A stretch of 32,000 nt of DNA from Candidatus Electrothrix sp. GW3-4 (GCF_037902255.1 NZ_CP147990.1:2880001-2912000); one strand, 5' to 3'. Positions 5,242-21,273 are shown, counted from the stretch's first letter. Notes: generated by a model from the letters alone, not told the origin. Numbers and translations: made by a program.

Positions 5242-5477
5242 CGTTAAATCCTCCTGTAATTAAAGAGTACAGGGGTTTTATTTTTAATATTAGCTAGTAA
5301 CAGGTTGCCTTTAAAAGGTAACTGAAGAAATCAGCTACGAATATCCGCAGGTTCTCCGCCGCAGGCTACCGACGACCGAACTTCGTGCTGAAAAAAGGCA
5401 CTGTGGTAGTAAGGGATACAGGAAATCGCCTTTTTCCACTTGACATTACTCCTCATAGATGTCCCCTTTTTACACTT

Positions 5478-6752
5478 CTAGCTTAGCTGATCGCCGTATT
5501 TAAGGATTTGCGGATTTTTGTGTTTACCACGTAACTCGTTCGCCGCCTTTATTGCGTGCGCTACTGTCACTTTACTTGTTCCCGCATGTTTTAAAAGTGT
5601 TTTTTCTGCCATATCATTGTAATCAGGGTGGGCTATCCTGTTTTTGTACCCTACATGGATCACCCTACGTCCATGCATTATCGCTTGGGTATTTTTGCCC
5701 TGCTTATTGTATTTTTGCTTCATCATTTTGCGTTTGACGTACAATGGTCCGGGCATCGTATTACCGTGCCTACCACCAGTCAGCATCATAAGGTTGTCTC
5801 GTGAATTGATGAATAAATCTGGGAGTTGATTTTTCATGCCTACTGATGCTGGTATGATATGCTGGGCTTCTCTTTTTCGTTTCCAATCGGGATAGGATAT
5901 TCCTGTATGCTTTTTTACATCCGCTGATAGCTTGCGCCATGTTGCCGTGCCTGAAGACACCTGGGATTGTTTTGGATGCTTTCTTAAGTAACGCTCTCGC
6001 GCTCCATGCTCCGCATCCCTTGCATGGCGAACACGTTTGCCCCCTTGAAGAATCCTATTAGTCTGCATTTCCTTCCGCACGTCGTTGAATGCTCTTGCTT
6101 TAACTAATTGGGTGGTCCGATCGTTACTATTTTTATAGTATGCTACGCTCTTTCGTTGGTGAATTTGGTGCTGAGCCCGCGCGCACGTACCGTTATGAAC
6201 ATTAACCGATAGCCGTCCCATCTGGTCCGCCTCCTTCTCCAACAGCCTGTTACCGTTCATAGCTTTCCCTCCTACCCACCCCGTCGGCTGCACCCGCCCT
6301 TCCTTCTGCTGCACCACATGCCAAGCCTCATGCGGCAGGTGCTTTTCCTGCCCTGGCGCAATATGAATATTCGTCCCCTGAGTGTAGGCGTGTGCTTGCA
6401 ACTGCGCGGGCTTATCAGAATTATAATGCACCCGCACATCATCCATTGCCATGCCGGAAAGATTCTCCACCCCCGCCTTCAAATTATCCGGCAGCCCCGT
6501 CCGGTTTGCCTGCTTCTGCACCGGCTCTTCCGCTTTGAGTTGCCTGCCCCCATGAAAATCCTTGGCCTGCAAAACTTTCCGCTCCGGTTGGCTCCCTGCC
6601 TTTGTCGGCATCCTCTCCCGCAGCTGCGCTGTGGACTCCCTGTTGTCCACGAAAGAAAAGCCCCGTGCCCTGCCACCCTTTTTCCTCTGCCTTACCGCAG
6701 TGGCAGCCGGAGTCAGGCCGGTCCTCTGATCTTTCCCTTTATATTCCCGCAT
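5478..6752 (-). CDS. DUF4157 (eCIS-core, HExxH) N-terminal domain protein with a divergent C-terminal AHH/HNH-EndoVII-like putative nuclease toxin domain
   Basis: LPDNLKAGVENLSGMAMDDVRVHYNSDKPAQLQAHAYTQGTNIHIAPG...LPHEAWHVVQQ is the DUF4157 pattern. The C-terminus (AQHIIPASVG...INSRDNLMML...HVGYKNRIAHPDYNDM) resembles the AHH-family layout (xHHIIP ... N..LP ... H.G.H..Y). Confidence 0.6.
   Translation of the reverse strand: MREYKGKDQRTGLTPAATAVRQRKKGGRARGFSFVDNRESTAQLRERMPTKAGSQPERKVLQAKDFHGGRQLKAEEPVQKQANRTGLPDNLKAGVENLSGMAMDDVRVHYNSDKPAQLQAHAYTQGTNIHIAPGQEKHLPHEAWHVVQQKEGRVQPTGWVGGKAMNGNRLLEKEADQMGRLSVNVHNGTCARAQHQIHQRKSVAYYKNSNDRTTQLVKARAFNDVRKEMQTNRILQGGKRVRHARDAEHGARERYLRKHPKQSQVSSGTATWRKLSADVKKHTGISYPDWKRKREAQHIIPASVGMKNQLPDLFINSRDNLMMLTGGRHGNTMPGPLYVKRKMMKQKYNKQGKNTQAIMHGRRVIHVGYKNRIAHPDYNDMAEKTLLKHAGTSKVTVAHAIKAANELRGKHKNPQILKYGDQLS
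6282..6752. repeat. Paralogous ~471-bp DUF4157 module, copy 1 (dispersed direct repeat with 10885..11355)
   Basis: The encoded residues 1-157 of the 424-aa and 215-aa proteins align without gaps at high identity. The DNA is visibly similar, for example CATGCGGCAGGTGCTTTTC and GCAATATGAATAT in both. Confidence 0.8.
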
Positions 6753-6782
6753 AAGGTGTCCCTCCTCGACTCTCTGTAATCC

Positions 6783-8161
6783 CTAAATCGTCTTGTTTTC
6801 CTTGCGGAATTCCCGACGAATCGCCAGCAATAATTCCTCTTTGGTCACATGCCGCCGCTCCTGACTGATTGCCGTTAAAGCACAGGTCCTCAACACATTG
6901 ATAATCGCGCCACCAGCCAGTTTATACTCCTCCGCCACTTGCACCAAATCAATATCACCTGCCAACTCGCATGTATCACGGAAGGCGTTTTGCCAGAGTT
7001 GCAAGCGTAGGTCGGCAGAAGGTATGGTAAAATGGATCATGGCCTGGAAGCGGCGGGTAAAGGCCTCATCCATATTGGCCTTTAAGTTAGTGGCCAGGAT
7101 CACAGTACCAGGAAAGTCCTCGATCTTTTGCAGCAAATAGCCGGTCTGCTGATTGGCATGTCGATCATTGGCCGTGGACGCGACCGTTCGCTTGCCAAAC
7201 AGGGCATCCGCCTCATCAAAAAATAAAATCCAATCCTTATAGGCCGCCGCATCAAAGACCCTGGACAGGTTTTTTCGGTCTCGCCAATATATTTGGACAC
7301 GATCATGGACAAATCTACCCTATACACGTCTCTGCCGGTTGATTTTGCCAACAGGGCTGCGGTTAAGGTCTTCCCCGTGCCGGGCGGACCGTAAAAGGCG
7401 GCTCGATAGCCTGGTTTGACCTTATTAGCCAGTCCCCAATCCTCCATCAGAGTATGGTTGTGGGCCAACCAGGCCCGAATCTCTTCCACCTGGGTCATCA
7501 CCCGGTAATCCAGGACCAAGTCGGACCAATTCAAGGGCGTGGTCAGGGCGTGGGCCGGAAATGAGGTGGATAGCTCCGGTTTGACCTCTTCACCGCTGAG
7601 GAAATAATGGAGCCACTGCTCAGAGAGCTTGAGTGCCCCGCTGAGCATGGGCAGGTTCGGGTCCGTGCTTTCCAGACTGATCACCTGCTCAGCCATCAAA
7701 CGGTGCTGGGGACTGAACAGCTCCCTTGCTGGCACATGCCAGGCCGGTTCATTGGCTGCGAGGAGAAAGAGCACGGTCTGGCCAGTGGGCAAAAAGCCGC
7801 TAAAGGCCTTGTCCGTGATCCCGCCAAACTCGCTGAAGCCGCGATCAATCAGTTGGTTGATACCGAAGAGCACATCCAATTGTTCCGGCTTTAAATGGGG
7901 GGCCATGGCCAGGGCAAGCAGCAACCGTTCAAATTGGCGCAGGTCCCAATCCCGGACAATGCCTGCGTACACGCTGTCGCTCTCATCCAAATCGGGCATG
8001 GGGATCTGCCACCAATAGGCTTCATGACCTTCGTGTTTGAGGTAGCTGCAAATGACCTGATGGATCACGGCACCCAACCAGGCTATTTCCCGTAGCAGGA
8101 CCGCCAAATTCTCATCCATAGCCGGGCCTAGCTGTTCAGACTGATAATCGTTCAACATCAT
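6783..8161 (-). pseudogene. AAA+ ATPase (DUF4157/eCIS-associated type) interrupted by a -1 frameshift in a homopolymer
   Basis: Walker A GPPGTGKT lies in the upstream frame. After GETEK the frame is lost at a T6 run (7270-7275, A6 on the coding strand). The next frame reads [28 protein letters not shown]...(Walker B)...QKIEDFPGTVILATN...TRRF. The start codon is uncertain: ATG at 8161, 8158 or 8119; the ORF-track start at 8185 is TTG. Confidence 0.8.
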
Positions 8162-8409
8162 CCAGAGAAATATCCACCCAGTCAAAGAGATCTATGGCTG
8201 TGGTGAGGTTCAGCTCATTACTTTTCATCAAGTTTTGCATATCCCCATTGAGCCAATGAGCAAGATGTTGACTCCCTAAGATTTCTTGACTGGCCAATAA
8301 TTGCTGCAAATAGTGATCATAGGCTGTATCGCTGAAAATCAATTTTTTCGCTTTAAAAAAATAGGCTGTTCTCCTGGCCGGAGTCGACCATTCATACGTC
8401 GCTATATTA
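8136..8409 (-). pseudogene. 3' fragment of a ~282-aa gene of unknown function split by the IS insertion
   Basis: The frame is open from the IS boundary (8409) down to the stop at 8136. It continues the frame of ORF 10056..10649 exactly once the IS and one TSD copy are removed. Confidence 0.75.
8402..8409. repeat. 8-bp target-site duplication CTATATTA (low-coordinate copy)
   Basis: An identical octamer is at 10067-10074, immediately outside the imperfect terminal inverted repeats. Confidence 0.8.
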
Positions 8410-10066
8410 GAGCATCCTCAAAAAGCTAACCTCTCATACAGGCAATACTGCAAGACTTGCCTTGGCATTTGTTCAAAGAACGCCAAAAATCGAGCGATAA
8501 TATGATTCAGCTGGCTGCGTAAAAGTAAAAACCGTGAAAGATATAAATTTTCAAGCTGTTCCTGCAACTTCCTGAGCAGAACCATCAGATTCATGACCAG
8601 GAAGATACAGTTGATCCATGCTTCAGAGGTTCTCTGAAGTTTTGCCCGGATGTAGTTGAGTCGGTAGCCGTTTTTTCCTTGGCCAAATTTCCCCTCAATG
8701 GGGATCCGTTCTCGACTATCCCGAATTCGTTGTGCTTTCAGTTCCCGAAGACGTTCTTTGTTTTCTTCTGTCTCTTTCGGGGACCTGCCCAATCGTTTAC
8801 CACCAAATCGAATACCTTTCTCTTTGAGATATTTACGGTTTTCTCTTGTTCCGTAAATCTGATCAGCCAGTACGACTGCCGGATAGTAACCATTCCGGCG
8901 CTTGTAACTCTCCACTTGCTCACGCAAATCCGTGCCTTCGTTGAAGGCATCCCAACCAATATGATCGACAAAAGCCAAACCATCGACCATGCTCACGCTG
9001 AGTTTGGCACCGAACTCCACATTTTTACCTGCTTTCCCACGAACTATCGGTCGTACATGAGGTTGGGCAATGGAAACAATTCGGTCATCGCAGCGTCGTT
9101 TTCGTTTTTTATACATCTCATCCTGCTGGCGATACACATGCTGAATGATCCAATACTGTCGTTGTTGCTGATGGGGAAGTGGAAAAGGTGCCGTTTCAAC
9201 ATTGTCAAGCAACTCATCAATATATCGCAGATTTCTTCGGATGTACTGTAATTGCTGCCGAAGTCCGCGCCGCAGAATTTTTCGGCCTGGTTTCTTTTTC
9301 TTAGCCAGATTCAGGTAGTTTTTACGGGCAAGTCTCCGATATGTTCTGGGCTTTTTGGCGTAGTCACTCTGTTTGTACAGATCATCAATCAGCTGCTCGG
9401 AAATCTCACGAGCTTCGTTGAGTAAACTCAGATCAGTCGGGTAACGAATCGCTTGCTCAGCAACCGTTGCATCGACAAGCATTTTTCCCTTATTTTCAAC
9501 GGGCTCTTCCTGACTCTCATCCTCTTTTTCGTCTTCATTTGCCGTACTTTTCTTTGAGAGAGCAAGTTTTTCCAAAATCACTTCTTCAAAAGCAGAAAAA
9601 ACATCTTTTCCCATGCGCTTGCGAATTTCAACAAACAGGCTGGGAGCTAGAGGTCGCTTGTCTTGAAAACAAGAAAATCCAACAAAATATTGAAGATAGG
9701 GATTCTCCTGGATCTGAAGTACGGTTTCTTCATCACTGAGCGTCAACTTGTGCTTAATGATTAACGCGCCGATCACCAATCTGGCATCTTTGGCTGGTCG
9801 TCCTTGATGCGGGTCCAAAGTTCGATAATATCTGATGGCGAACTCATCCCACGGAATAACTTTATGCCATTTGATCCATCTGTTTTCAGGGTTCAGTTTA
9901 CCTCCAAACGGAAGGCTGAATCCTTCAAGTGTAAGCTGTCTGTCACTGGTGTACCTGATCATGTGCATGCCTTATGAGGGGGTGAACGTCAAAAACATGC
10001 ATATTTTACAATATTTTTACAACTTTTTCATTTAAAATCAGTGCACTGAGGCTTTTTAAGGGCAAT
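8410..10066 (-). mobile_element. Insertion sequence, 1657 bp, IS5/IS1182-superfamily-like, single DDE transposase
   Basis: It is bounded by the 8-bp direct repeat CTATATTA. The ends GAGCATCCTCAAAAAGC and (reverse complement) ATTGCCCTTAAAAAGC form imperfect IRs sharing CCTYAAAAAGC. It contains one 516-aa transposase ORF. Confidence 0.85.
8418..9968 (-). CDS. DDE transposase (InsH-type N-terminal domain, IS5/IS1182 family-like)
   Basis: The N-terminus (QLTLEGFSLPFGGKLNPENRWIKWHKVIPWDEF...GRPAKDARLVIGALIIKHKLTLSDEETV..IQENPYLQYFVGF) is the pattern I associate with IS5/IS1182-type transposases. The 516-aa length fits. Confidence 0.8.
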   Translation of the reverse strand: MHMIRYTSDRQLTLEGFSLPFGGKLNPENRWIKWHKVIPWDEFAIRYYRTLDPHQGRPAKDARLVIGALIIKHKLTLSDEETVLQIQENPYLQYFVGFSCFQDKRPLAPSLFVEIRKRMGKDVFSAFEEVILEKLALSKKSTANEDEKEDESQEEPVENKGKMLVDATVAEQAIRYPTDLSLLNEAREISEQLIDDLYKQSDYAKKPRTYRRLARKNYLNLAKKKKPGRKILRRGLRQQLQYIRRNLRYIDELLDNVETAPFPLPHQQQRQYWIIQHVYRQQDEMYKKRKRRCDDRIVSIAQPHVRPIVRGKAGKNVEFGAKLSVSMVDGLAFVDHIGWDAFNEGTDLREQVESYKRRNGYYPAVVLADQIYGTRENRKYLKEKGIRFGGKRLGRSPKETEENKERLRELKAQRIRDSRERIPIEGKFGQGKNGYRLNYIRAKLQRTSEAWINCIFLVMNLMVLLRKLQEQLENLYLSRFLLLRSQLNHIIARFLAFFEQMPRQVLQYCLYERLAF

Positions 10067-10649
10067 CTATATTATGGCATTGCTCGATTTTCGCACTTTC
10101 ATGACTGAGCAGCAGAAAGGAATCGGTTTCTGAAGTGGCTGCCGTCATTTCAAGCCGGGCCCGCTTGCCGCCAGCAATGGCCAAGCCCCACCGCTCCACT
10201 TTGGCCACCGCCGTGATACAATACACCTCCCGAAAACTGTAACGACCTTGGGTAACCTGCAAGGTGATATCCTCTTTTAACGCGCTCCAATTGGTAATGA
10301 GGCGACAACGTGGTTCATGACCATGAAAGATAAAACTCCCTGGACGCTTAAGGCTGACCACCTGTTTGCTCCAATAATCAATATGTCCCTCGTCGTTCTG
10401 TTCCTGCCCTGTGCCCGAATAGATTTGTTGAACATCCTGATCTAAACACCATCCCAAGGGATTTAAGGGCAGTGAAGGACTGTGCTCTACGTCCACTTCG
10501 AGGTGGAGGTCTGTCAGAGTTAATAAGGGTTGCAGGTAACCATTTTGGATTTGACAAAGTTCGCCCGGATGAATCTTCCGGGTGAGGGGCTGCATGGGCA
10601 GCCAGCCGGTCTGTAGATAGCAACGCCGGTAAAAAGCGTGATTCAGCAT
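10056..10649 (-). pseudogene. 5' fragment (194 native codons + 3 IS-derived codons) of the IS-disrupted ~282-aa gene of unknown function
   Basis: Good RBS (AGGAGAG) upstream of the ATG at 10649. The last codons D-C-P-stop are read from the IS terminal repeat. Confidence 0.75.
10067..10074. repeat. 8-bp target-site duplication CTATATTA (high-coordinate copy)
   Basis: See 8402-8409. Confidence 0.8.
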
Positions 10650-10707
10650 ATACGTCTCTCCTGGCTTTTATGCGCCCGGGATGAAGCGCGTTCTCGTTTG
10701 CACAGCA

Positions 10708-11355
10708 TTATGCAGCAAAAGCAGCAGCTTTTTCCGCAGCTAAACCGGCTTTCAGTGAGTTGAGGTTGTTTTGGGCATTGGTGAGTTGTTTCTGAGCATA
10801 ATCTAATACCTTCCCCCCCATCACATCCGCTTCCCTCTCCAACCCCGCATCATCATTCACATTCACGCCCCCTTTCATCTGCATGGTGGGCTGCACTCTG
10901 CCTTGCTTCTGCTGTACCACATGCCATGCCTCATGCGGCAGGTGCTTTTCTTGCCCAGGGGCAATATGAATATCAGTCCCTTGCGTATAGGCATGGGCTT
11001 GCAGTTGCGCAGGCTTATCAGAATGATAATGCACATTAACGTCATCCATCGAATAGCCAGACAGATTCTCAATGCCAGACTTTAAGTTGTCCGGCAAACC
11101 TGTGTTGTTCGCCTGCTTCTGCACCAGCTCTTCCGCTCTGCGCTGCCTGACACCATGAAAGTTCTTCGCCTGCAAAACTTTCCGCTCCGACTGTTCCCCA
11201 GCCTTTGTAGGCATCTTCGCCCGCAACTGTACTGTGGACTGCCGGTTGTCCACGAAAGAGAAGCCCCGTGCCCGGCCATTCTTTTTTCTCTGCGCAACAG
11301 CATGAGCGACCGAAGTGTAGTTGTTCTTATTTTCTTTTTCCTGGTATTCCTGCAT
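10708..11355 (-). CDS. Short DUF4157 (eCIS-core, HExxH) domain protein without an obvious toxin domain
   Basis: Residues 1-157 are paralogous to the 424-aa protein (LPDNLKSGIENLSGYSMDDVNVHYHSDKPAQLQAHAYTQGTDIHIAPG..LPHEAWHVVQQ). A short Ala/Asn-rich tail follows. RBS GGGGAGGA lies upstream. Confidence 0.7.
   Translation of the reverse strand: MQEYQEKENKNNYTSVAHAVAQRKKNGRARGFSFVDNRQSTVQLRAKMPTKAGEQSERKVLQAKNFHGVRQRRAEELVQKQANNTGLPDNLKSGIENLSGYSMDDVNVHYHSDKPAQLQAHAYTQGTDIHIAPGQEKHLPHEAWHVVQQKQGRVQPTMQMKGGVNVNDDAGLEREADVMGGKVLDYAQKQLTNAQNNLNSLKAGLAAEKAAAFAA
10885..11355. repeat. Paralogous ~471-bp DUF4157 module, copy 2
   Basis: See 6282..6752. Confidence 0.8.
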
Positions 11356-11509
11356 CCCTCGTCCTCCCCTTTTTTTGTTGCTGCCAGCAGAACCTGCGTG
11401 CGACTTCCCGCTGCCAATAACCGCTAAAAATATCTACATTTTTTCATCAAACCCCGTCCATTCCAATTTTTTTTGGCACCGAGTTTCGATAATGCCCTTC
11501 ACCTCCAGC

Positions 11510-12637
11510 TTACTCCGTCCCTCCCCCTAGCGCACAGACCTTCTGTTCTTCTTCTATGGCTTCATTCTCATCGATACGGCGGAGGCCCTCCATGATCAGC
11601 CCCATAAAGCCTCCCAGGACCGGAAGTTGTCTTTCCTCCTCAGAGAGCCCCTTGCTATAGAAGAACTGACCATCCTGTTTCGCAAGTATATGAAACACAG
11701 CATTTTTCCCTTCATACCTATCGCACTTGCAAAAAACTATTTCTCCTGCATTGAAGAGAACGCCCCCCTTACATCCATCAAAGATAAAATCAACCTTTCC
11801 GGTTTTTCCGCCGGAATTGATCAATTGAAACAGTTCCACTGTATTGATATCCGAGAGCTCGCCATTCATACCGGACGTGATGTTTCCCGCCCGAAGCGTA
11901 TTCTTCTGGACGCGATCCACCAGCACCCTATAGAAAAAAACCTGCAAAACAGGATGGGTGGAAAGAGTAGATTTAAAGTCCGTGGCCTTTAATGAGGCCA
12001 ATTCCACCGGCGTCTTTGAATGCACCGCAGAAGAAGTCAATTCGCCGGAGAGCAGACTCATCTCGCCAAAGATATCTCCCGGTCCGAGTTCGGCTATCAC
12101 ACCGGTATCATCCCGCACCACAGCCACTTCTCCGGCTAAAACGACATAAAAATGCGTCCCCATAGCGCCAGACTCAATAATGATGGTATTGGCCGGATGT
12201 TTTTCCAGCTTCATCAGGAGAGCCAGATCCTGCAGATCGAAATCATCAAGAGGTTCAAAAAGTTCCATCCCCCGGAGGAGCTCAAAAAACTTTCCGACGA
12301 GCTGATTCTTTGCCCGTTTTTTCGAGAGCTCAAGAAGATTCATCTGTAAGGTGGAATAAGCAACCTCCTTTTTGTATTCAAAGCGAATGAGCCCTGTACA
12401 CCCGCCGCACTCAAATTTCTTTTGCCTTACCCCTGGCTGGGAGGGGACGGCAAGACGATGCTTAAGGAGATTGCTTTCGTCCAGTGCTGTGAGGAGTTCC
12501 TGCACCAGCCACACGCAGAGTTCCTTATTTCCTCCTGCAGAGATGGTTGAATCACGGATGATAAATTCATCTCCTACCCGATACACAGGACAGGTATGTT
12601 CTTCTGTAACAACAAAGACGGCATTACGACGATACAC
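11510..12637 (-). CDS. Cyclic-nucleotide-binding (CAP-effector) domain protein with a C-terminal DUF4388-like domain
   Basis: Central block FYVVLAGEVAVV...LGPGDIFGEMSLL...SAVHSKTPVELASL is a cNMP-binding beta-roll with the FGE motif. The C-terminus (LFQLINSGGKTGKVDF...GGVLFNAGEIVFC...GKNAVFHIL) resembles DUF4388. Confidence 0.7.
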   Translation of the reverse strand: MYRRNAVFVVTEEHTCPVYRVGDEFIIRDSTISAGGNKELCVWLVQELLTALDESNLLKHRLAVPSQPGVRQKKFECGGCTGLIRFEYKKEVAYSTLQMNLLELSKKRAKNQLVGKFFELLRGMELFEPLDDFDLQDLALLMKLEKHPANTIIIESGAMGTHFYVVLAGEVAVVRDDTGVIAELGPGDIFGEMSLLSGELTSSAVHSKTPVELASLKATDFKSTLSTHPVLQVFFYRVLVDRVQKNTLRAGNITSGMNGELSDINTVELFQLINSGGKTGKVDFIFDGCKGGVLFNAGEIVFCKCDRYEGKNAVFHILAKQDGQFFYSKGLSEEERQLPVLGGFMGLIMEGLRRIDENEAIEEEQKVCALGGGTE

Positions 12638-12988
12638 GATTATACACCGATTAAATTTTATTCAGGTGGAATTGCGAGAGGAGGGCAGACAAATACAAGG
12701 ACTCTTATTTTATTCAAGGTCTTATTTTTCCGGTTATTTGCTCTTATCAGTTTAACTGATTTGGAGAAAGGAACAAGTCTAATATCGTCGCAGCTCAGAT
12801 TATCCTTGGTGACAATTGAGGACAGAATAATTATCGGGATAAAACCTGTGGTGCAGACGTGTCCTGTATCATTTTTTTACCCATAGAAGCAACGAGATAA
12901 GGCGAATCAAAGAGAGCTGGCGGAAGGGAAGAACAAGGGGCAAGAAAAACCAGGCAAGTTAGGGCAGCTTCGAGTCGTCTTATTCATC

Positions 12989-13873
12989 TTATTCATTAAG
13001 GCCTCCTTGCAAGCTATCATCCTGCTGCTGAACAGAGACGATCCACGGCTCAAGACGACGACCATAGGCCAGCTTGACCTGATAACGGGGTGGCCTCAGG
13101 TCACCGCTCGTTGGTTTATTCCGGGCAAGAGCGGCCTCAAGTTGCTTCCGATACTTGAGGGGGACATGAATACGTTCTATGCTTAACGCTTTGATCTGCC
13201 CGAAAACTTCTTCCCTCTTCTTTTTGTACATATATCCAGGTTTGACCAATCCCTTGGTAATGATGAACCGGGTTCGGTCCTGATATTTTTCTCGTAATTG
13301 TACGGGATCAAGTCCTGCATCAAGGACAAAGAGACGGGACGCACTTATGCGCTCCCGCTGCAACTCATCTTTAGCCCGTTCAACCTCATCGCGCAGGTTT
13401 TTGTCTCCACTGTTGAGCCGAGCGGCCTCTTTCTTCATTTCCAAGACACGTTCTGCTCTCCTGGCAGCTTCCTGATAGAGTTCCCCATCATTTTCCAGGA
13501 CAAGAAAGACCTCTTTGCTCACGAATCGGTCGGAACGCCACCCTGTATTCTTTGCCTGAAGATACTGTTCTATCTGAAAGCCTACCTCCTCTAATTTATC
13601 GGCATTGAACCAGACAGGCGTTCCCCAATGGCCATAATGGATAGACTCTTCATCCTGGCTCAAGGTTCGCCAGGCAAGTTGCAGAGAGATCCCGCTATTC
13701 TCTTTCACCCATTGTCGCGAGAGCGGCAGCTCTCTTTCAGTAAGGAAAATCTCTGCCTCCGGGGTTCCAGATCTATTGAAAGCAACGCCAGAGAGCACCG
13801 CAATATTAACGCCTATGATGAGGACAAAACCGAGGGTAAATAAGGCACGGGAAGAGAGACGGAGTTTCATCAT
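12989..13873 (-). CDS. Membrane-anchored protein of unknown function (possibly DUF4824-like partner of the upstream DUF2157-like gene)
   Basis: There is an N-terminal TM/signal anchor (RALFTLGFVLIIGVNIAVLSGVAF). The start overlaps the upstream stop (ATGATGA). The family name is a weak recollection only. Confidence 0.45.
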   Translation of the reverse strand: MMKLRLSSRALFTLGFVLIIGVNIAVLSGVAFNRSGTPEAEIFLTERELPLSRQWVKENSGISLQLAWRTLSQDEESIHYGHWGTPVWFNADKLEEVGFQIEQYLQAKNTGWRSDRFVSKEVFLVLENDGELYQEAARRAERVLEMKKEAARLNSGDKNLRDEVERAKDELQRERISASRLFVLDAGLDPVQLREKYQDRTRFIITKGLVKPGYMYKKKREEVFGQIKALSIERIHVPLKYRKQLEAALARNKPTSGDLRPPRYQVKLAYGRRLEPWIVSVQQQDDSLQGGLNE

Positions 13874-14942
13874 GCTTCCTCCTGTACGTTGTTGCTGTAT
13901 GATCTTCGCAGCCGTTTAAAAATCAAGAGGATACCGATGGCGGTCAGGCCGACAAGCAGAAAGAAGAGATACTTGGGCAGCCACTCCCACCACCAGTCAT
14001 AAAATTTTGTATAGAGGAAGATGGTAAAAAAGGTGTTGCCGGTATTGACGACCTCGGGCCAGCCATTCCGTATCCCGAGCCAGATAGCTGCTGCGCTGAA
14101 GACAAAGCCGACAATCTGATAGAGAACCTCAATTGAATCTGCGTCAAAATCCAGATAGCTGATCGCTCCCCAATTCGAGAGGATGAGCACCGGGATAAAA
14201 AAAGGAGCAGGGCAAAAACGCGATAGATGACCGTGAAACCCGAGAACTTATGATGGGGAAGGAAAGAGATCAGGAAAAGAATCAGGGCTGCCGGAAAAAA
14301 ATTCTCTGGTCGTTCACCAAAGGAAATCCAATAGCAGCCGCTCCAGGTCCCGGTCTTGGCAGAGAGAAAGGAGGTCAGACAGATGATGCCTGCTGCCAGG
14401 AGCAAGCGCGCGTCAGCGGCATAGGCAAGAAGAAAGGCAAAGAGCGCCCAGACCAGAAAGGCATTGGGCGTGGGGGTAATATTGAAGATCTGGCCGAACA
14501 TGGAAAGGTTGAGGACAAAACAGGCAAGGCTGACCAGACCGAGGAGCTTGGAGAAATAGCCGGTCTTTTCCCTCTGCGAGGCGTAGAGAGTGCCTGTCAG
14601 ACCAAGCAAGGGGGCTGTGATGAGGATAATAACCTGAATGGTGGTCGTGAATCTGCCCCAGAATTGATAGAAGAGGAAAAAGACACTGGCCGCAAGTCCG
14701 AGCGCACCCAGGAAGGAGGCGATTTTCATCCCCAAGCTGAGCTGCTTTTCCCGTCGGTTGACATCAATATCAAAGGCAGAGGCCAGTTGGGTCAGGAGAT
14801 CCTGGTGGTAATCGGCAATGGCGGAGCGTTGGTTGTCCTGAAGGGAGAAAATATTTTCCTGTTCAAGGAGAGCTACTTCAGCCTGAAAATGTCCGATTTG
14901 ATCAGCCCGGCGCTGGGCCTCGGCTTTTGATTTTATTTGCAT
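13870..14942 (-). pseudogene. Polytopic membrane protein (DUF2157-like) with a -1 frameshift in a homopolymer
   Basis: The 332-aa frame is TM-rich up to ...VIYRVFALLLF, then becomes a hydrophilic S/R/G-rich out-of-frame-looking tail. The overlapping frame (13870..14190) continues with TM-like sequence (IPVLILSNWGAISYL...WWWEWLPKYLFFLLVGLTAIGILLIF). The switch point is the A7 run at 14197-14203. Confidence 0.7.
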
Positions 14943-15051: not shown

Positions 15052-15387
15052 CTAATCAAGTAACAAGTTGGTATCAATCACATGATATTTTTCTTTCCAT
15101 TCCGACAATCCTAGGCCGCAGTTAAAGTTTTCTCCTGGAATTACGAACTGCTTACATTCTTCAGGATATTCATCAGTATCATGTATTTTACAAAAAGCCT
15201 TATGCCAACCTTTCTTTTTTTCATCATAAGTTGGAGGGATTAAATGAATGCAGGGCTTTCCCTCCGGTTTAATTCCTTCGGGATATCCAACAACTCCCCT
15301 CACTTCATATTTTGCACAACAAGCTCCAGATCTTAAACATTTAAACATATTGACACACCCTGTCTGACAATATTTTATTGTCCCCAT
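15052..15387 (-). CDS. Cys-rich protein, YkgJ/CxxCxxCC-type putative zinc- or Fe-S-cluster domain
   Basis: CQTGCVNMFKCLRSGACC ... PCIHL ... FCKIHDTDEYPEECKQF follows the YkgJ-family cysteine pattern. It overlaps the mCpol gene by 13 nt and lies in the AT-rich block. Confidence 0.5.
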   Translation of the reverse strand: MGTIKYCQTGCVNMFKCLRSGACCAKYEVRGVVGYPEGIKPEGKPCIHLIPPTYDEKKKGWHKAFCKIHDTDEYPEECKQFVIPGENFNCGLGLSEWKEKYHVIDTNLLLD

Positions 15388-15758
15388 ATTTTTATTGTAG
15401 TTGCTTCTGCATTTGTTAGAGTAACAACCTGAGCTTTACCCCTAGCTTTAGCTAATTGCAGTGCCAAATATGCTTTTTCAGCAGAATTGCTAATACCCAC
15501 TGAAATAGTGCATACCCCTACAGGTAACAACTCAATAACATTACCCATTTTATCTTTTTCAATATATGCTAGCACACTATCGCCACCACAAAAAACTATG
15601 TTATAACCATTCAACGATAATAATCTACTGATTTTTTTAAAATATATATCAAGTTCATTACTAAAGTTCGAAACATTTTCAATTTCTTCATTAATTATAA
15701 AGGTGCGCAGATGAAGCCCAACATCATCTCCATCAATAGCAATATATGATTTATTCAT
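15375..15758 (-). CDS. Minimal CRISPR-polymerase-like (mCpol) palm-domain nucleotide cyclase, OptS-like
   Basis: It is 127 aa. YIAIDGDDVG is the N-terminal metal-binding strand and FCGGDSVLAY is the GGDEF/GGDD-equivalent. No other domain is present. It sits directly downstream of a TM-SAVED gene. Confidence 0.7.
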   Translation of the reverse strand: MNKSYIAIDGDDVGLHLRTFIINEEIENVSNFSNELDIYFKKISRLLSLNGYNIVFCGGDSVLAYIEKDKMGNVIELLPVGVCTISVGISNSAEKAYLALQLAKARGKAQVVTLTNAEATTIKIWGQ

Positions 15759-15773
15759 AGTAAGTTGCCATAG

Positions 15774-16787
15774 TTAAATATCCAAATTTTGAATGTCTAT
15801 TACACGTTCCCATACTGGTTCAGTATCATTTGGATTGTAAATAATGATATTCGAATTTTCATGCAGTAGTTTTCCAAGAATAAAGGCCAGCGTACAAGGA
15901 AGTCCAGGAAATAAATGTATAGTTCGCCCCTCCATAGTATATCTCGTCAGCACTTCATTAATTTCATAAGAAATTTGAGACATATCCTCTATCTCAATAT
16001 ATTTATTCCTACCCTTAGGAAAGACTTCTACCTTATTATTTGTAATATCTGGGAAAGGTATACGTGACGCGCTAGTGAATGATAAAATTACAGTAATATC
16101 ACCATATTCATTTATTATCTTCTCATTAAATTTTATTTTCTTAACAGAACTTCGACTCTGCGTTCCTTTCAAATTTGGAGCCATAACATATGATGACGTC
16201 GAGTCACAATAATGATATACAACCCAATCTCTTTCTTTTCCTATAGCATACCCAACTCCTATCAATACTGCTGGTTGCGCTATCGTGAATAAATGTAATT
16301 TTGTTTCTATAGGTATTCTCTTAGCATATCTAAAAAAATGATCTGATATATTCTCTACACTATCCTGCCATGATTTAGTTTCTCTAATTGGTTCATCATA
16401 ATATTGCCAATCAATATCAATTATTTTAAATTCTTTTTCTATAAGAAACAAATCGACCTTGTTTCTTTTCAAGACATTTCGTTGTTTTCTAACACTATCT
16501 TTAAAATAATTACTTTTCTTACCAAGACATATTGAATAACCTGAGCTTACATTATATATTGTTATATATACAATTTTCATTGTGTCTATAATAACATATA
16601 ACAAATAAGATACCAAAAGGGTGATTGAAGCATAATCAAGCCAGATAAACCTATTATTGTTTATCGAGTTAGTAATTATTGTCAATACCGTAACTGGAAA
16701 AATAACAATAACTTCGCCATGCAAACCCCATAGCTGATCTATAAATACACAAAGAAAGTTTTTATTATTATCAGGTTGATTCATCAT
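15774..16787 (-). CDS. Transmembrane-SAVED effector (N-terminal TM helices + SAVED nucleotide sensor), OptE/Cap14-like
   Basis: Hydrophobic helices lie within residues ~20-80. Two CARF-like pseudo-repeat signatures are present: LHLFTIAQPAVLIGVGYAIG and IHLFPGLPCTLAFILGKLL. Confidence 0.7.
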   Translation of the reverse strand: MMNQPDNNKNFLCVFIDQLWGLHGEVIVIFPVTVLTIITNSINNNRFIWLDYASITLLVSYLLYVIIDTMKIVYITIYNVSSGYSICLGKKSNYFKDSVRKQRNVLKRNKVDLFLIEKEFKIIDIDWQYYDEPIRETKSWQDSVENISDHFFRYAKRIPIETKLHLFTIAQPAVLIGVGYAIGKERDWVVYHYCDSTSSYVMAPNLKGTQSRSSVKKIKFNEKIINEYGDITVILSFTSASRIPFPDITNNKVEVFPKGRNKYIEIEDMSQISYEINEVLTRYTMEGRTIHLFPGLPCTLAFILGKLLHENSNIIIYNPNDTEPVWERVIDIQNLDI

Positions 16788-17167: not shown

Positions 17168-17302
17168 CCTAACTCCCCTCAAACTTCCTCCGAAAATGAT
17201 CATACGCCGCATTGATCTCCTTCATCTTCTCCTCAGCAACCCCCTTAAACTCATCACCTAAATGGGCCACCTTATCCGGTTGATACTGCATGGAAAGCTT
17301 AC
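17168..17302 (-). pseudogene. Displaced duplicate of the last 40 codons + stop of the djlA-like gene (J-domain remnant, HPD -> QPD); left copy of a 135-bp direct repeat
   Basis: 128 of 135 nt are identical to 20412..20546 in my hand alignment. It translates to [40 protein letters not shown]. Confidence 0.85.
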
Positions 17303-17332: not shown

Positions 17333-19948
17333 TCACGCCTGTCCTTTACGGGTCATCTCAAGAGCATGTCGATAAATATCAGGAATTTTATAACGAGAGG
17401 CCTTATCATCGCGTTCTTCATATACAGACAAAATGCCTACTTCCTGAGCAAGAGGGATAAGCTCCTGATTTTTTCCTAAGTCACTTGCTGCAACCGGAGT
17501 ACGCCCAACTCTTTTGAGATTATCCAAGAGGGGTTCCAGTTCTTTAAATTCCTCTTTGAGGGCCTCCAAGGCCTGTACAGAAACTTCAGGGAGACATTTA
17601 ATCAATGCCCGTGGACGCATGAGAGCACGCGGGTAACGTGAACGATTATTTTCTTTTCGTTCCCATGGCACCGCCTCATGAAAAAGCTGGAGAAGATAAC
17701 GCGGGGTGTGATCATTATTGCTGTCAGCCAGTCGGGTCCAAACCCAGTTTCTTGTGAAAGCTGTCCTTCCTCCCTGCATACGCTCGCCGACAAGGATATT
17801 CCAGACAGCAAACACATCTTTTTCTGTCCAGGAGTCTACAGGCCTTTTTTCAGGATCAGGGAGCTCAGATTTTTTTTGCAAAAACTCACGAAAGGGCTTA
17901 CAGCGCAGGGCCTGCTTCAGGATAACTTTGAGAAAAGTGGCCTGCTCTTTCCATTTAAGCTCAACGCTTCTCCCGTACAGATGGCTTTTGTTTTCAAAAT
18001 GCAGCTTCCGCCAGATGTCTTCCCGCAGAAGTATTTTAAAATAAAAGTGCTGTAGATTTTGCCCCTGATTCATCAACAAATCGAACAATCCTTCTATGGC
18101 CGCTGACCGGCGGGTTCTGTCCTGCGGAGTGCTGCCAAAGCCTGTATCCAACCCGTCAAGCAGCAGGAACGTATCTCTTGTTGTCTTGCCATCCAAACGA
18201 AGAAGCCAGTCATTGAGTTCCAGAGATGCTCCCGGTATTTCAGCTGTTCTTTTAAATGCAACTGAGATTTCCCGTTCAGATTGCAAAGGAACCTCTTTCA
18301 GATATTCCGGCATATCAACATCAAGGTCCAAAGAATTCATTATGGCTGTATTGACATAAAGAATCCAAAAATGCCTCCAGGACAATTCACTATCATTGAT
18401 AATTTTCTCAATATACTGAAAGCCGTCCACGCTGATTATCCAGCTTTTTCCCTGCTTCAGAGAAGCCGGGGCATGGACGACCACTGTACTGTATCCCTTA
18501 TCGTCCTCTGATATTCTTCTGAATATCGCCGTTTTCCCAGAGCCTTTTCTTCCAAGAACAAGGGGAATACGGGCAGAAAGGGCATCTTTAACAATCGTCG
18601 TTTCCACAAAGCTGTCTAAAAACGCCCCCTGACTTTCAGCCGTACCCGGTGCAAAGGTCAAGGTCCGTAAAATTTCATCCTTTGCCCGTTCCAGAGATTC
18701 TGCCTGTTGAACTTCATTTTCAGAGGGGAGAAAACGTTCTATCCAATTGACAACCGGTTCAAATTCTTTCCAGATGACAGGATCTTGCAGAATGGCATTG
18801 GATGAGGCGATATCATCCCGATAGCGAATAAAATGGGTGAGTTCATTTTCATCAGAGGATAATTCCTCCCTCTCGCTATTGACTCTATGCATCCATTCTG
18901 CAATCCATCGAAGTGATTTTTCTTTATACCTATTGATAAGTTCCGGGATATTGGGCAGAGGAGATATTAAAAAACGCGGTTCCGGAGTTAATCGCTGACC
19001 AGCTGTCTTCCTTTCTGTAGAGGAGGCAAGCAGCCCCTGGGTCAGCAGTTGCGTACCTAACCGAGCCTGAGGATGGGGGAAAAAGGTGATGATTGCAATA
19101 TCAGCCAGATCAAAAAGAAGGGGTCCGTTAATATCGGTGATGCCTGTCCTGGCATCAAGCAGAACGACATCAGGCGTGAACGGCAATTTTTCTTTTATAC
19201 CAGCCAGCAGAAGTTTTAAGGGGTTATGTTCCTCTCTGTACCAGGCATCAGGAAGAATAAAGCGTAATTTCCGGGCATAATCAGGGGAAATTTGTCCTGC
19301 TGGAATTAAATAAATATTGTCCGCATCCGGCACAGGGATCAGGTGGGAAGAAAAATCCGGTTCTTCTCCCTGATCAAGTTCCATAAGTAAAGAGACAACA
19401 CCTTTATCAGGGCGAACTTCGTTTTCGCAGGCAAATAATGAAGCGAGGCCCGGAGCCTCCAAGTCCATGTCAATACAGACAACCTTGCGCCGGTTTGCTG
19501 ACAGAATATGTGCGGTGTAGGCAAGTGCGGTTGAGCGCCCGACTCCTCCGCGAAGCGAATAGAATGTTGTTACAATCGGAGGGGGGATATCATCGTCAAG
19601 ATCAGAAGGAAAAATGACTTCCGCAGAATTTTCCGCAGAATTTTCAAGAGCACCTTTGGCAAGTTTTTCCGGCCACAGCGGCAGGTCTTCAAGCTGAATA
19701 TCACCGGGCAGGACCCCTATCCATTCCCGCTCTTCTGGAGTAACCAGCTCAATCCATTCTATGGTTTCTTCAATTTCTTCAAGAACAATCTGCCGTCTTT
19801 TTTTTTGCGGTATATCGCGGAACCCTTCCGCGACAACAGCAATCTGCCAGCCGCCATAGGGATCTTGCCGAACAATAATGCGTTCAGTATCAATGCTTGC
19901 CCGCTTTAAATTATTTTCAATTATGAACTGCAGCTCGTCTTTATTCAT
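17333..19948 (-). CDS. 871-aa two-NTPase protein: ParA/MinD-like domain with a variant deviant Walker A (RGGVGRST) fused to a second P-loop ATPase (GRKGSGKT)
   Basis: FYSLRGGVGRSTALAYTA...VVCIDMDLEAPGL...VVLLDARTG fits a ParA/MinD fold (the KGGVGR-variant family as I recall the NCBI naming). The second half has IPLVLGRKGSGKTAIFRRI and FLLLDGLD (Walker B-like). The ATG overlaps the HEPN stop (TAATG). Confidence 0.7.
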   Translation of the reverse strand: MNKDELQFIIENNLKRASIDTERIIVRQDPYGGWQIAVVAEGFRDIPQKKRRQIVLEEIEETIEWIELVTPEEREWIGVLPGDIQLEDLPLWPEKLAKGALENSAENSAEVIFPSDLDDDIPPPIVTTFYSLRGGVGRSTALAYTAHILSANRRKVVCIDMDLEAPGLASLFACENEVRPDKGVVSLLMELDQGEEPDFSSHLIPVPDADNIYLIPAGQISPDYARKLRFILPDAWYREEHNPLKLLLAGIKEKLPFTPDVVLLDARTGITDINGPLLFDLADIAIITFFPHPQARLGTQLLTQGLLASSTERKTAGQRLTPEPRFLISPLPNIPELINRYKEKSLRWIAEWMHRVNSEREELSSDENELTHFIRYRDDIASSNAILQDPVIWKEFEPVVNWIERFLPSENEVQQAESLERAKDEILRTLTFAPGTAESQGAFLDSFVETTIVKDALSARIPLVLGRKGSGKTAIFRRISEDDKGYSTVVVHAPASLKQGKSWIISVDGFQYIEKIINDSELSWRHFWILYVNTAIMNSLDLDVDMPEYLKEVPLQSEREISVAFKRTAEIPGASLELNDWLLRLDGKTTRDTFLLLDGLDTGFGSTPQDRTRRSAAIEGLFDLLMNQGQNLQHFYFKILLREDIWRKLHFENKSHLYGRSVELKWKEQATFLKVILKQALRCKPFREFLQKKSELPDPEKRPVDSWTEKDVFAVWNILVGERMQGGRTAFTRNWVWTRLADSNNDHTPRYLLQLFHEAVPWERKENNRSRYPRALMRPRALIKCLPEVSVQALEALKEEFKELEPLLDNLKRVGRTPVAASDLGKNQELIPLAQEVGILSVYEERDDKASRYKIPDIYRHALEMTRKGQA

Positions 19949-20361
19949 TACAACATCCTTCGACTCCGATGGATATTTTTGTTAATCCAGCCTGTGAGCT
20001 GCTTAGCGGCAGTCACCAGTTCCTCTGCCGAATGAGTCAACACATCGATATTGCTCTGATACCGCAGGGCGGTGTCCCAATCTTCAAGGAAAAACGTCTT
20101 TGCACCAGTGCGATCGTTAAGATCGGAACTTCGAAAACCAGCTGCCCGCCAGAAGCCCCGAAGATTGTGCCCTTCTTTACCTTTAGTTGGGAATCGCCTG
20201 TTCGTTTTTTTCAAATATGCCTTGAGCATACACTCAACAGCATACCCGGCCATATACGCCGGTCCGACAGAGTTATTTCTTGTCGGAAGCATAGCGTCGG
20301 CATCGCCAGCACGTTCCTTGGCTGTGTCAATCCAGTCTTGAAATGATTGCGGATCGTTCAT
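19948..20361 (-). CDS. HEPN-domain protein (classical PF05168-like four-helix type)
   Basis: AKERAGDADAML...GPAYMAGYAVECMLKAYL ... GHNLRGFW ... ALRYQ follows the HEPN helix pattern (A..DL..A..L...A.F.A.QA.E..LKA.L ... H.L..L ... RY). No clear Rx4-6H is seen. Confidence 0.55.
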   Translation of the reverse strand: MNDPQSFQDWIDTAKERAGDADAMLPTRNNSVGPAYMAGYAVECMLKAYLKKTNRRFPTKGKEGHNLRGFWRAAGFRSSDLNDRTGAKTFFLEDWDTALRYQSNIDVLTHSAEELVTAAKQLTGWINKNIHRSRRML

Positions 20362-20411: not shown

Positions 20412-20546
20412 CCTAACTTCCCTCAAACTTCCTCCGAAAATGATCATAGGCCGCATTGATCTCCTTCATCTTCTCCTCAGCCACCCCCTTAAACTCATCA
20501 CCTAAATGAGCCACCTTATCCGGGTGATACTGCATAGAGAGCTTAC
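20412..20546. repeat. Right copy of the 135-bp direct repeat (functional 3' end of the djlA-like gene)
   Basis: See 17168..17302. The two copies bracket 17303..20411. Confidence 0.85.
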
Positions 20547-21273
20547 GGTAGGCCTTTTTGATGGCAGCAAAATCTGCCCCCTGCTCCACCCCGAGCACGG
20601 CATAATACTGCTGCTCAGCCGGAGCACCGCCGCCAACACCGCCGGACCTCTGCTTTTGATGCCCGTACCGGTATTTATTCTCCATGGTCCGGCGCTCATA
20701 TTCACTAATGCTCAAAAATTGCCCGATCTTGCGGGCCAGATTAAGCTCTGCCTCTTCTGCAGGGCTCTTGGTAAAGATGAGTTGATAGATCAGCTCCAAC
20801 AGGATCAGGCGGGGCTCATAGGCAAAGCGGTTGCGGAACTCGGTGAGCAGGGCATCCAGGTCCTGCTCTTCATCACGGGCCTCCTTGATCAGCTGCTTGA
20901 CCCAGTACATCTGCTCCTGGTTATAATGGAGCGAGTGCTGGAAGAAGTTGAGCATGGTCCGCAACTCGGACTTGGTGAAATGGCCGTCTGCCTTGGCAAT
21001 GCAGACCAGGATATTGACCAGAAGAAAGACAAAACGATTATGGGTCTCGCTCTGGGATTGCTCGTAGGCTGTGGCCCGGCTCTGGATATATTTGGTAAAG
21101 CCAAAAAAGGCCGCAAAGAGAACGATTACCCCGAACAGACCAGAGTAAATAAGGACAGAGACAAAATTCCCCACAGCCTGCCAGCCACCAGTGGCCAACA
21201 GGAGGAGGATCACAATCAAAAGACAACCGCCGCAGCCCGGCTGGTTGCTGTTATAGCTGTACTGGCGTTGCAT
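20413..21273 (-). CDS. djlA: DjlA-like co-chaperone: N-terminal TM segments, TerB-like domain, C-terminal J domain
   Basis: TM region ([15 protein letters not shown].., [15 protein letters not shown]). TerB-like block ([20 protein letters not shown]). J domain ([31 protein letters not shown]). Confidence 0.75.

Follow-up and report, generated by a model that had tools for sequence, protein, structure and literature searches.

What is the function of a small HEPN gene whose stop codon shares a base with the start codon of a gene for a protein with two nucleoside triphosphatase (NTPase) domains? This question is raised by a two-gene cassette found in a 32,000-nucleotide stretch of the genome of Candidatus Electrothrix sp. 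GW3-4 (GCF_037902255.1, NZ_CP147990.1:2880001-2912000), which we call the window and whose first letter is position 1 below. The HEPN protein has 137 amino acids (aa), while its 871-aa partner carries a ParA/MinD-like domain followed by a second P-loop module. A first-pass annotation of the sequence had proposed that the pair is an uncharacterised conflict system. As a candidate, this is borne out by homologues embedded in restriction-modification (R-M) and BREX operons and by matches to the PADLOC candidate PDC-M28. We consider that the two genes are, on balance, probably a self-contained and horizontally mobile conflict module, most likely of the anti-phage abortive infection kind, and a fused relative of PDC-M28.

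The two genes are coupled and inherited as a unit

On the minus strand the junction of the two genes is GTTGTAATGAAT, where the final A of the TAA stop of the HEPN gene is also the A of the ATG start of the 871-aa gene. This junction and the listing of open reading frames (ORFs) confirm the operon described in the first-pass annotation, with its one-nucleotide overlap (TAATG). The two ORFs are not there by chance, because of their length and because about 120 full-length homologues are found at about 50% identity.

A scan of 185,579 species genomes (one per species) gave at least 100 pattern-matched loci, 80 of which were kept. They come from about ten phyla, with a patchy spread: Desulfobacterota, Chromatiaceae and other Gammaproteobacteria, Cyanobacteria, Myxococcota and Actinomycetota (Streptomyces, Frankia), as well as Chloroflexota, Planctomycetota, Bacteroidota, Magnetococcales and Dormibacterota. 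The adjacency of the two genes is upheld in these neighbourhoods: in 73 of the 80 loci the ORF immediately before the big gene, on the same strand, matches the HEPN hidden Markov model. Three of the remaining seven have no upstream DNA, and two of the other four carry remnants. The stop and start codons overlap in 46 of the 65 scorable loci (by 4 nucleotides in 38 and by 1 in 8), and the HEPN stop is at most 10 nucleotides from the start of the big gene in 55 of these 65. The pairwise distances of the HEPN proteins follow those of the big proteins (Mantel r 0.83, a value reached by 0 of 999 permutations), and clustering all flanking ORFs of the 80 loci gave no third conserved gene. Hence, from the upstream HEPN gene, the overlap, the Mantel correlation and the absence of a third conserved gene, we concluded that the two genes are a self-contained, co-inherited module, expressed from one coupled operon and passed on as a unit.

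A few loci depart from this arrangement. In two cyanobacterial metagenome-assembled genomes (MAGs) the big gene ends after its ParA-like half (L077, 1348-2996, 413 aa; L080, 4997-6807, 427 aa), with the HEPN gene intact and no C-terminal module nearby; these copies represent either intermediate stages of decay or a minimal form that is viable. In the complete genome of the cyanobacterium Gloeothece verrucosa (CP002198; L084, 9818-9985) the gene called upstream of the homologue of the 871-aa protein has only 55 aa, and argG, groES/EL and a Prok-JAB gene surround the locus; the HEPN gene there may be degenerate or mis-called.

A compact two-gene unit, translationally coupled and co-inherited, whose distribution is patchy as after horizontal transfer and whose neighbours are heterogeneous, might also be a selfish toxin-antitoxin (TA) or addiction module that is not dedicated to defence against phages. 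The HEPN protein would then be the toxin and the NTPase its neutraliser, by functional analogy with the minimal nucleotidyltransferase of type VII HepT/MntA systems, and the cassette would persist by post-segregational killing while stabilising the islands that host it. HEPN toxins with a nucleotide-using partner are an established theme, and a split relative on an Enterobacter IncF plasmid, described below, adjoins a GNAT/DUF1778 TA pair and an integrase. We nevertheless find this explanation unlikely. The NTPase, with its 871 aa, three domains and variable insert, is much more complex than the antitoxins described so far, some HEPN genes are intact although their big gene is truncated, and the embedding of homologues in R-M and BREX operons points to defence. 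Moreover, the pair is rare on plasmids, where 14 of 72,556 records match and only one covers most of the query; a phage collection contained no homologue. It must be noted that TA and abortive-infection functions are not mutually exclusive.

The cassette had also been described as an insertion between direct repeats. This 135-bp repeat is real: its two copies, identical at 128 of 135 positions, bracket exactly the two-gene cassette, and no integrase lies inside these 3.2 kb. The cassette has a G+C content of about 46%, compared with about 31% for the 2 kb that follow and 51-56% for the flanks. A scan for consensus promoters and terminators around the cassette gave nothing above shuffle expectation. 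In a second Electrothrix genome (contig L001, about 86% nucleotide identity) the same cassette and the same repeats are found at the same gene, which means that the insertion predates the split of the two species. The DNA beyond the cassette differs in L001, and we therefore regard the spot as variable.

A HEPN fold with an alternative set of conserved residues

The first-pass annotation had called the 137-aa protein HEPN-like, and at the level of the fold this call stands. In a Foldseek search of the PDB with the AlphaFold2 (AF2) model (predicted local distance difference test, pLDDT, 91.9), the top five matches are all HEPN proteins, namely ST0689, TT1696, AF0298 and two 4nqf chains (1wol, 1ufb, 2hsb, 4nqf), each with probability 1.0 and with template modelling (TM) scores of 0.58-0.68. 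A profile of the family against PDB sequences found nothing significant, so that the identification from the PDB comes from the fold search only. The model thus confirms a four-helix HEPN fold. At the sequence level, the PADLOC model of PDC-M28A (PDLC04558) matches weakly (E 1.5e-6, 26.8 bits, aa 9-129), and the precomputed Pfam family PF05168 is present in 21 of 40 homologues. The subfamily is small, with 157 representatives at E<=1e-10, essentially always standalone proteins of 130-145 aa.

The residues R17, D20, Y36, G39, Y40, E43, K47, H65, R100 and Y101 are conserved in 36 to 70 HEPN homologues. E43 and K47, in helix 2 of the AF2 model, are invariant in 36 homologues and conserved at 96-99% in 70 locus-derived sequences; H65, which the model places in an insert between the helix of residues 33-52 and the later helices, is invariant in the former and conserved at 99% in the latter. 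R100, at the position of the arginine of the canonical Rx4-6H motif, is conserved at 96% and Y101 at 96-100%, while positions +4 to +6 are variable. A comparable situation has been described by Anantharaman et al. (2013, PMC3710099): AbiV and the AF0298-like HEPN-T proteins keep the arginine, lose the histidine of the motif, and carry a second conserved histidine in the insert between helices 2 and 3 together with an Ex3[KR] motif in helix 2, an arrangement proposed as an alternative active site. Judging from its sequence, the set E43x3K47/H65/R100 matches this alternative-histidine pattern, and the four-helix fold is shared as well (2hsb, the AF0298 structure, is the third Foldseek match). 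The window protein differs in its partner, which is a double NTPase and not a minimal nucleotidyltransferase, and in the residue following the arginine, a tyrosine instead of the usual polar N, D or H. By analogy, RNase activity through the predicted alternative site is plausible, the activity of the AF0298/AbiV arrangement being itself a prediction only.

Type VII HepT/MntA modules also pair a small HEPN protein with a nucleotide-using partner in a two-gene mobile module. Unlike them, the window pair has no nucleotidyltransferase (in Pfam, PADLOC and NCBIfam searches), lacks Rx4H, and has the HEPN gene first, not second. The Foldseek matches of the HEPN model to HepT structures are weak (E 0.76-2.2).

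An arginine Walker A in the ParA/MinD-like domain

The middle part of the 871-aa protein had been read as a ParA/MinD fold in which both Walker A lysines are arginines, and two kinds of evidence agree with this. The top 50 Foldseek matches of the domain are all ParA, MinD, BcsQ, Soj, FleN or Wzc proteins (E 9e-8 to 1e-4, target TM scores up to 0.75). In a phmmer search against the PDB, SLRGGVGRST is in column register with SIKGGVGKST of a Borrelia ParA-like protein (3k9g) and with SGKGGVGKTT of MinD (3q9l), which shows arginine in place of both lysines, the trans-acting one of the signature and the cis one of the P-loop; the motif KGGxGK[ST] with both lysines is not present in the domain. The NCBIfam model NF047398, "KGGVGR-motif variant AAA ATPase", matches aa 125-305 with 152.2 bits against a cut-off of 90, although the motif in its name starts with K where the window protein has R.

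The annotation had taken the arginines as a loss of lysines in the window copy. This part of the claim has to be given up. In 117 full-length homologues (about 50% identity) the stretch from G134 to R138 is invariant and R133, S139 and T140 are conserved in at least 90%. The switch I aspartates D160 and D162 and the Walker B aspartate D265 are kept and invariant among homologues. The near-invariance in the 117 homologues means that the arginine Walker A is a fixed family trait under purifying selection. A decayed pseudo-ATPase was also considered; it is ruled out by the fact that the ParA-like domain is the most conserved region of the 871-aa protein, with the lowest column entropy of all regions (1.07 bits).

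The idea that this domain acts as a nucleotide-dependent switch or scaffold fits both the conservation and the precedent of BcsQ, in the latter case by analogy only, and it is in our opinion the best-supported reading of the arginine Walker A. In BcsQ the trans lysine is replaced by arginine and the cis lysine by threonine; the protein is constitutively a sandwich dimer with ATP bound, has weak ATPase activity and serves as a scaffold in cellulose secretion (PMC7840130). The MinD/ParA fold and the replacement of both Walker A lysines are common to the two, and BcsRQ structures are among the top Foldseek matches. The differences are that BcsQ has T at the cis position and C or S at the catalytic aspartate, whereas in the window family the cis residue is R and both aspartates of switch I are retained, and that the cellular contexts are unrelated.

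A BolA-like N-terminus and the question of a housekeeping role

The AF2 model of the 871-aa protein has a pLDDT of 89.2 and a predicted TM score of 0.81. Its N-terminal domain, which the annotation had not recognised, now appears to be BolA-like. When a profile of 27 homologues was compared with the PDB, nine of the 12 listed matches, including the top five, belonged to the BolA family, the best being 1v9j (E 0.0042, residues 4-71 covered). The modelled topology is alpha-beta-beta-alpha-beta-alpha, and several homologues bear the Joint Genome Institute names "stress-induced morphogen" and "BolA-like IbaG/YrbA"; Pfam BolA gave no match in the 871-aa protein at E<=0.1. Among the 117 homologues W34, F43, R51 and E73 are invariant in this domain and D29 is conserved in at least 90%. 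The domain may bind nucleic acids or a partner. In the linker that follows, P90, W92 and S115 are invariant and E94 and D118 reach at least 90% in the same set; the AF2 confidence is low at aa 81-110 (pLDDT 55-63).

Could the large protein then have a housekeeping role, either as a ParA-type positioning or partition ATPase or as a factor of Fe-S trafficking that unites a BolA-like domain with one resembling Mrp, NBP35 or NUBPL? Apart from the BolA-like N-terminus, what speaks for it is that the best Pfam match of the middle domain is PF10609 (the NUBPL iron-transfer P-loop NTPase), accompanied by weak MrpORP and MinD matches, and that the automated names of homologues include "ParA family protein" and "BcsQ". 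These Pfam matches are, however, all far below the family cut-offs, and both Walker A lysines are replaced. The conserved histidine of BolA proteins is a ligand for Fe-S clusters and glutaredoxin. In the profile alignment the histidines of the BolA HIH segment fall on E/E in the 871-aa family, and C158 is the sole cysteine among the invariant or nearly invariant residues, which leaves no conserved cysteine pair. As regards a cognate partner, no Pfam ParB-type family is found in the top 25 families of 138 immediate neighbours, and the 80 loci share no third gene. The occurrence in at least 100 loci among the species genomes scanned, patchy across phyla, and the insertion of the cassette between direct repeats are also at odds with housekeeping. 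We ruled out the Fe-S (BolA-Mrp) reading on the missing cysteine pair and histidine and on the sub-threshold matches, and a partition ParA on the missing ParB or centromere partner and the variable context. A housekeeping role is thus largely refuted by context and by the missing ligands and partners, and we hold it to be very improbable.

The Sll1717 module and the C-terminus

The first-pass annotation had described a second, canonical P-loop followed by a long helical C-terminus; the translated motifs GRKGSGKT and LLLDGLD and the AF2 helices bear this out. The region of aa 431-816 belongs to the Sll1717 family, since NCBIfam NF047389 ("P-loop ATPase, Sll1717 family") matches aa 435-816 with 121.2 bits against a cut-off of 75. 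The motifs GRKGSGKT, LLLDGLD and LLRED are invariant or conserved in at least 90% of the 117 homologues. The NTPase core is interrupted by a variable helical insert (aa ~481-592, 2.48 bits of entropy), with peaks of 2.5-2.9 bits at aa 541-580. In the C-terminal region of the model, helices at aa 669-837 are followed by a beta-hairpin (strands 841-846 and 849-854). The sequence GERMxGGxTAFTRNWVWxRL is very conserved there, the entropy falling to 0.5 at aa 721-740.

The DGLD and LLRED motifs, the Pfam matches and the modelled C-terminus point to the AAA+/STAND class. Among 32 Sll1717-type members, Pfam finds ORC-CDC6-like in 30, AAA_16 in 30, AAA_22 in 29 and NACHT in 21, all sub-threshold, and the nSTAND matches are sub-threshold too; a profile of the C-terminal half gave only P-loop-level matches among PDB sequences. 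With the STAND proteins (Avs, bNACHT, AP-ATPases) the module would share GxxGxGKT and hhhhDGLD, an hhhRED motif resembling the STAND hhhTTRD, helical and winged-helix-like domains after the NTPase, and the association with a HEPN effector that is known for STANDs. It departs from them in that Pfam STAND and NACHT matches do not reach threshold, that HEPN is a separate protein, that an extra ParA-like NTPase occupies the N-terminal (effector) position, and that there is no C-terminal repeat sensor: no repeat families of the TPR, WD40 or LRR type were found, and the protein ends about 200 aa past the NTPase core.

The order of domains (an N-terminal module, a central NTPase and no C-terminal repeats) mirrors that of STAND proteins, which speaks for another explanation, in which the 871-aa protein resembles nucleotide-binding leucine-rich-repeat proteins and carries its own effector. 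Once activated, the BolA-like and ParA-like region would interfere, for example, with the placement of the division site, the nucleoid or the segregation machinery, and the HEPN protein would be a non-catalytic sensor or adaptor that binds RNA or nucleotides. It is in line with this that the ParA-like domain is the most constrained part of the protein, that HEPN domains without Rx4-6H are regarded as binding or regulatory modules, and that Kaur et al. (PMC7159879) list MinD/ParA-like domains among the effector domains of conflict systems. On the other hand, the conserved residues E43x3K47/H65/R100 agree with the alternative catalytic site proposed in PMC3710099, and neither a membrane-targeting helix nor a DNA-binding surface has been demonstrated for the ParA-like domain. 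We judge this explanation quite unlikely.

Relation to PDC-M28

The first-pass annotation did not recognise the combination of HEPN and a dual NTPase as a named system. This no longer holds: PDC-M28A, B and C models all match the pair, and NF047398 and NF047389 pass their curated cut-offs. Within the 871-aa polypeptide, the PADLOC model of PDC-M28B (PDLC04559) matches aa 126-287 (E 5.2e-28) and that of PDC-M28C (PDLC04561) matches aa 590-822 (E 9.8e-15). PDC-M28 is the cassette CAS_00115 (FAM_01482>>FAM_02546>>FAM_01036, 121 RefSeq instances) of Payne et al. (bioRxiv 10.1101/2024.01.29.577857), one of 145 PDC candidates, which were derived from genes lying inside BREX, DISARM and type I R-M systems. 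A bona fide split trio is carried by the Enterobacter bugandensis IncF plasmid NZ_CP039454, with proteins A, B and C of 179, 438 and 491 aa, overlapping stops and starts, the motif GLKGGVGRST in B, and PADLOC scores of 415/448/576 bits. Its A protein reaches 415 bits with PDLC04557 and 107.9 bits with PDLC04558.

The order of genes and domains is the same in the window: a HEPN-like A, then B with an N-terminal domain and the KGGVGR-variant ATPase, then an Sll1717-like C. The differences are that a single 871-aa ORF combines B and C, where PDC-M28 has three separate genes, that the motif is RGGVGR instead of KGGVGR, that the HEPN protein has 137 instead of 179 aa, and that the matches are distant (27/96/52 bits). 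From these sequence comparisons we conclude that the window pair is related to the PADLOC candidate PDC-M28, as a distant relative that is fused and of the RGGVGR type. No mechanism can be inherited from PDC-M28, as it is itself a candidate only. The fused B+C form is the rule in the subfamily of the window protein, and another fused version (29% identity) lies next to hsdR on a Nostoc plasmid. The PADLOC rules probably miss the fused form, one protein carrying both the B and the C matches. What is new here is this fused variant, whose invariant arginine Walker A is unusual; the PADLOC candidate and the NCBIfam families were already catalogued.

Two other loci are related to this family. In the Syntrophobacteraceae MAG L003 a fused pair (10982-14219, minus strand) adjoins a split trio lying immediately downstream (7585-10619, plus strand), formed by a 143-aa protein with no NCBIfam match, a 439-aa KGGVGR ATPase and a 497-aa Sll1717-like ATPase; being adjacent, they are two paralogous systems side by side. 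The Sinorhizobium plasmid NZ_CP133151 (L083, 3989-6193) encodes a 734-aa protein with an N-terminal KGGVGR-variant ATPase domain (135 bits), annotated by NCBI as TIR domain-containing, and a second TIR gene is nearby. This fusion to TIR shows that the KGGVGR domain is reused with other immune effectors.

Defence context and proposed mechanism

Seven homologues were inspected in the context of long contigs. One pair sits inside an R-M operon (hsdM-[pair]-hsdS-hsdR) close to a SMODS gene; another homologue lies within a BREX operon, a third comes after hsdRMS and before an AAA_15/21 ATPase, and a fourth adjoins a gene for an MmeI-like R-M enzyme. Among the 138 immediate neighbours, AAA_15/21 is found in four and an integrase in three. 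In the window itself, the first-pass annotation was right about a neighbouring defence system, as the cassette is adjoined by what is, from its sequence, a Panoptes-type (OptS/OptE-like) anti-phage pair of an mCpol gene and a gene for a transmembrane protein with SAVED. This pair lies in the segment of about 31% G+C and is absent from the same position in L001.

Several observations weigh against a conflict module of this kind. The defence context is one: three of the seven long contexts are essentially housekeeping, of the 80 loci only 3 gave type I R-M or MmeI genes in a BLAST search with R-M seeds, and the 138 immediate neighbours are heterogeneous, including glutamine synthetase and tRNA synthetases. 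We have therefore tempered the strong claim of a defence island. The association suggested in the first-pass annotation is real and includes clear cases of embedding in R-M and BREX operons; it is a minority pattern and not a pervasive one. The HEPN protein is another. Its score with Pfam HEPN PF05168 (E 5.6e-4, 20.5 bits) is below the gathering threshold of 22, and in the 36 and 70 homologues no conserved H is found 4-6 residues past R100. The HEPN identity thus holds for the fold and fails for the canonical Rx4-6H, whose absence means that RNase activity is not assured. Also, as truncated big genes keep an intact HEPN gene, HEPN is unlikely to be a constitutive toxin held in check only by the STAND half, and the assignment of that half to the STAND class comes from motifs and sub-threshold Pfam matches. 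Finally, the PDCs, PDC-M28 included, are explicitly unvalidated candidates. A literature search on PDC-M28 and Sll1717 found nothing, and KGGVGR occurred only in unrelated work; nothing was found either on an anti-phage combination of HEPN, MinD and P-loop proteins.

These points being taken into account, the reading as an abortive-infection module can be put in mechanistic terms, as a proposed HEPN module gated by NTP. Starting from the observed domain identities, motif conservation, operon coupling, co-inheritance and embedding, we infer a complex, its trigger, an RNase activity and an outcome as follows. The HEPN and the 871-aa protein would form a complex. In it the Sll1717 module, with its intact Walker A, DGLD Walker B and sensor-like LLRED motif, would be a hydrolysis-competent switch of the AAA+/STAND type, and the variable helical insert, a candidate surface for recognition, or the C-terminal winged-helix region may perceive a cue of infection and drive oligomerisation. 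By analogy with BcsQ and MinD, the ParA-like domain may bind nucleotide and, hydrolysing it slowly or not at all, would be a sandwich-dimer module on which the geometry of the complex depends. The complex would control HEPN; once activated, HEPN dimers could cleave RNA through the alternative H65/R100/E43 site, and this cleavage would stop the growth of the infected cell, that is, abortive infection.

In conflict systems of multicellular bacteria, Kaur et al. (2020, PMC7159879) have noted MinD/ParA-like domains that they call inactive, among others with an AP-ATPase. By description, their family resembles that of the window. The phyletic spread that we observed (cyanobacteria, actinomycetes, myxobacteria, cable bacteria) fits their remark on multicellular bacteria. 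It is possible, although this should be held tentatively, that the RGGVGR domain is a new arginine-based ParA/MinD switch which, with the STAND ATPase, licenses an alternative-histidine HEPN RNase. The whole would be a two-switch immune sensor without characterised counterpart, enriched in multicellular or filamentous bacteria, and the BolA-like/ParA-like half may monitor the nucleoid or the division machinery for interference by phages.

If the pair is active, it would open a first way into the mechanism of a defence family in which a dimerisation switch of the ParA/MinD type is coupled to a STAND-like ATPase and a HEPN effector. The NCBIfam KGGVGR-variant and Sll1717 ATPase families, which are now names without literature, would gain a function as well. 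The spread over about ten phyla including multicellular lineages bears on immunity in multicellular prokaryotes, and the Walker A with its invariant Lys-to-Arg changes, which is under strong purifying selection, offers a clean test case for SIMIBI NTPases becoming slow switches.

Features of the locus

The features of the cassette and of its surroundings are collected in Table 1.

Table 1. Positions in the window of the two genes, of their predicted domains and motifs, and of adjoining features
Feature	Position	Strand	Remarks
HEPN gene	19948..20361	-	137 aa; first gene of the operon; PDC-M28A-like
HEPN helix-2 Ex3K motif, E43-C-M-L-K47	20221..20235	-	conservation in homologues
HEPN H65, in the helix 2-3 insert	20167..20169	-	conservation in homologues
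HEPN R100-Y101, end of helix 3	20059..20064	-	R of the Rx4-6H position; conservation
Double-NTPase gene	17333..19948	-	871 aa; fused PDC-M28B and PDC-M28C
BolA-like N-terminal domain, aa 1-80	19709..19948	-	profile against PDB
Conserved linker, aa 81-122	19583..19708	-	motifs LPLWPExLA, PSDLDxD
ParA/MinD-fold (SIMIBI) domain, aa 123-335	18944..19582	-	NCBIfam NF047398 and Foldseek
Walker A RGGVGRST, aa 133-140	19529-19552	-	translation
Switch I DMD (D160xD162), aa 160-162	19463-19471	-	translation
Walker B-like LLDARTG, aa 263-269	19142-19162	-	translation
Helical connector, aa 336-430	18659..18943	-	AF2 helices 335-359, 390-404, 410-429
Putative AAA+/STAND-class P-loop NTPase core (Sll1717 family)	17954..18658	-	NF047389 and PADLOC PDC-M28C
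Walker A GRKGSGKT, aa 466-473	18530-18553	-	translation
Walker B LLLDGLD, aa 595-601	18146-18166	-	translation
LLRED, aa 640-644	18017-18031	-	translation
Helical and winged-helix-like C-terminal region, aa 666-871	17336..17953	-	AF2
Direct repeat, copy 1	17168..17302		orphan copy of the 3' end of the TerB-DnaJ gene; far boundary of the 3.2-kb cassette
Direct repeat, copy 2	20412..20546		functional 3' end of the TerB-DnaJ gene
TerB-DnaJ gene	20413-21273		3' end duplicated as direct repeat
mCpol gene	15375-15758	-	PF18182, E 1.6e-22
Transmembrane and SAVED protein gene	15774-16787	-	gene after mCpol

Next to the Panoptes-type pair, a 111-aa cysteine-rich ORF (15052-15387, minus strand) shares 13 nucleotides with the 3' end of the mCpol gene. 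It has no PADLOC or NCBIfam match, and its Pfam match to DUF7531 is sub-threshold (E 0.0034, 17.4 bits against 27). This ORF is a possible third component of the Panoptes-like locus.

Farther away in the window, at 4342-11355, two eCIS_core ORFs (5478-6752 and 10708-11355) match the same region of the family and have a DDE transposase (8418-9968) between them; near them are an AAA+ ATPase (7100-8185) and also a DSP-phosphatase-like ORF (4342-5241). This looks like a disrupted or duplicated effector region of a contractile injection system.

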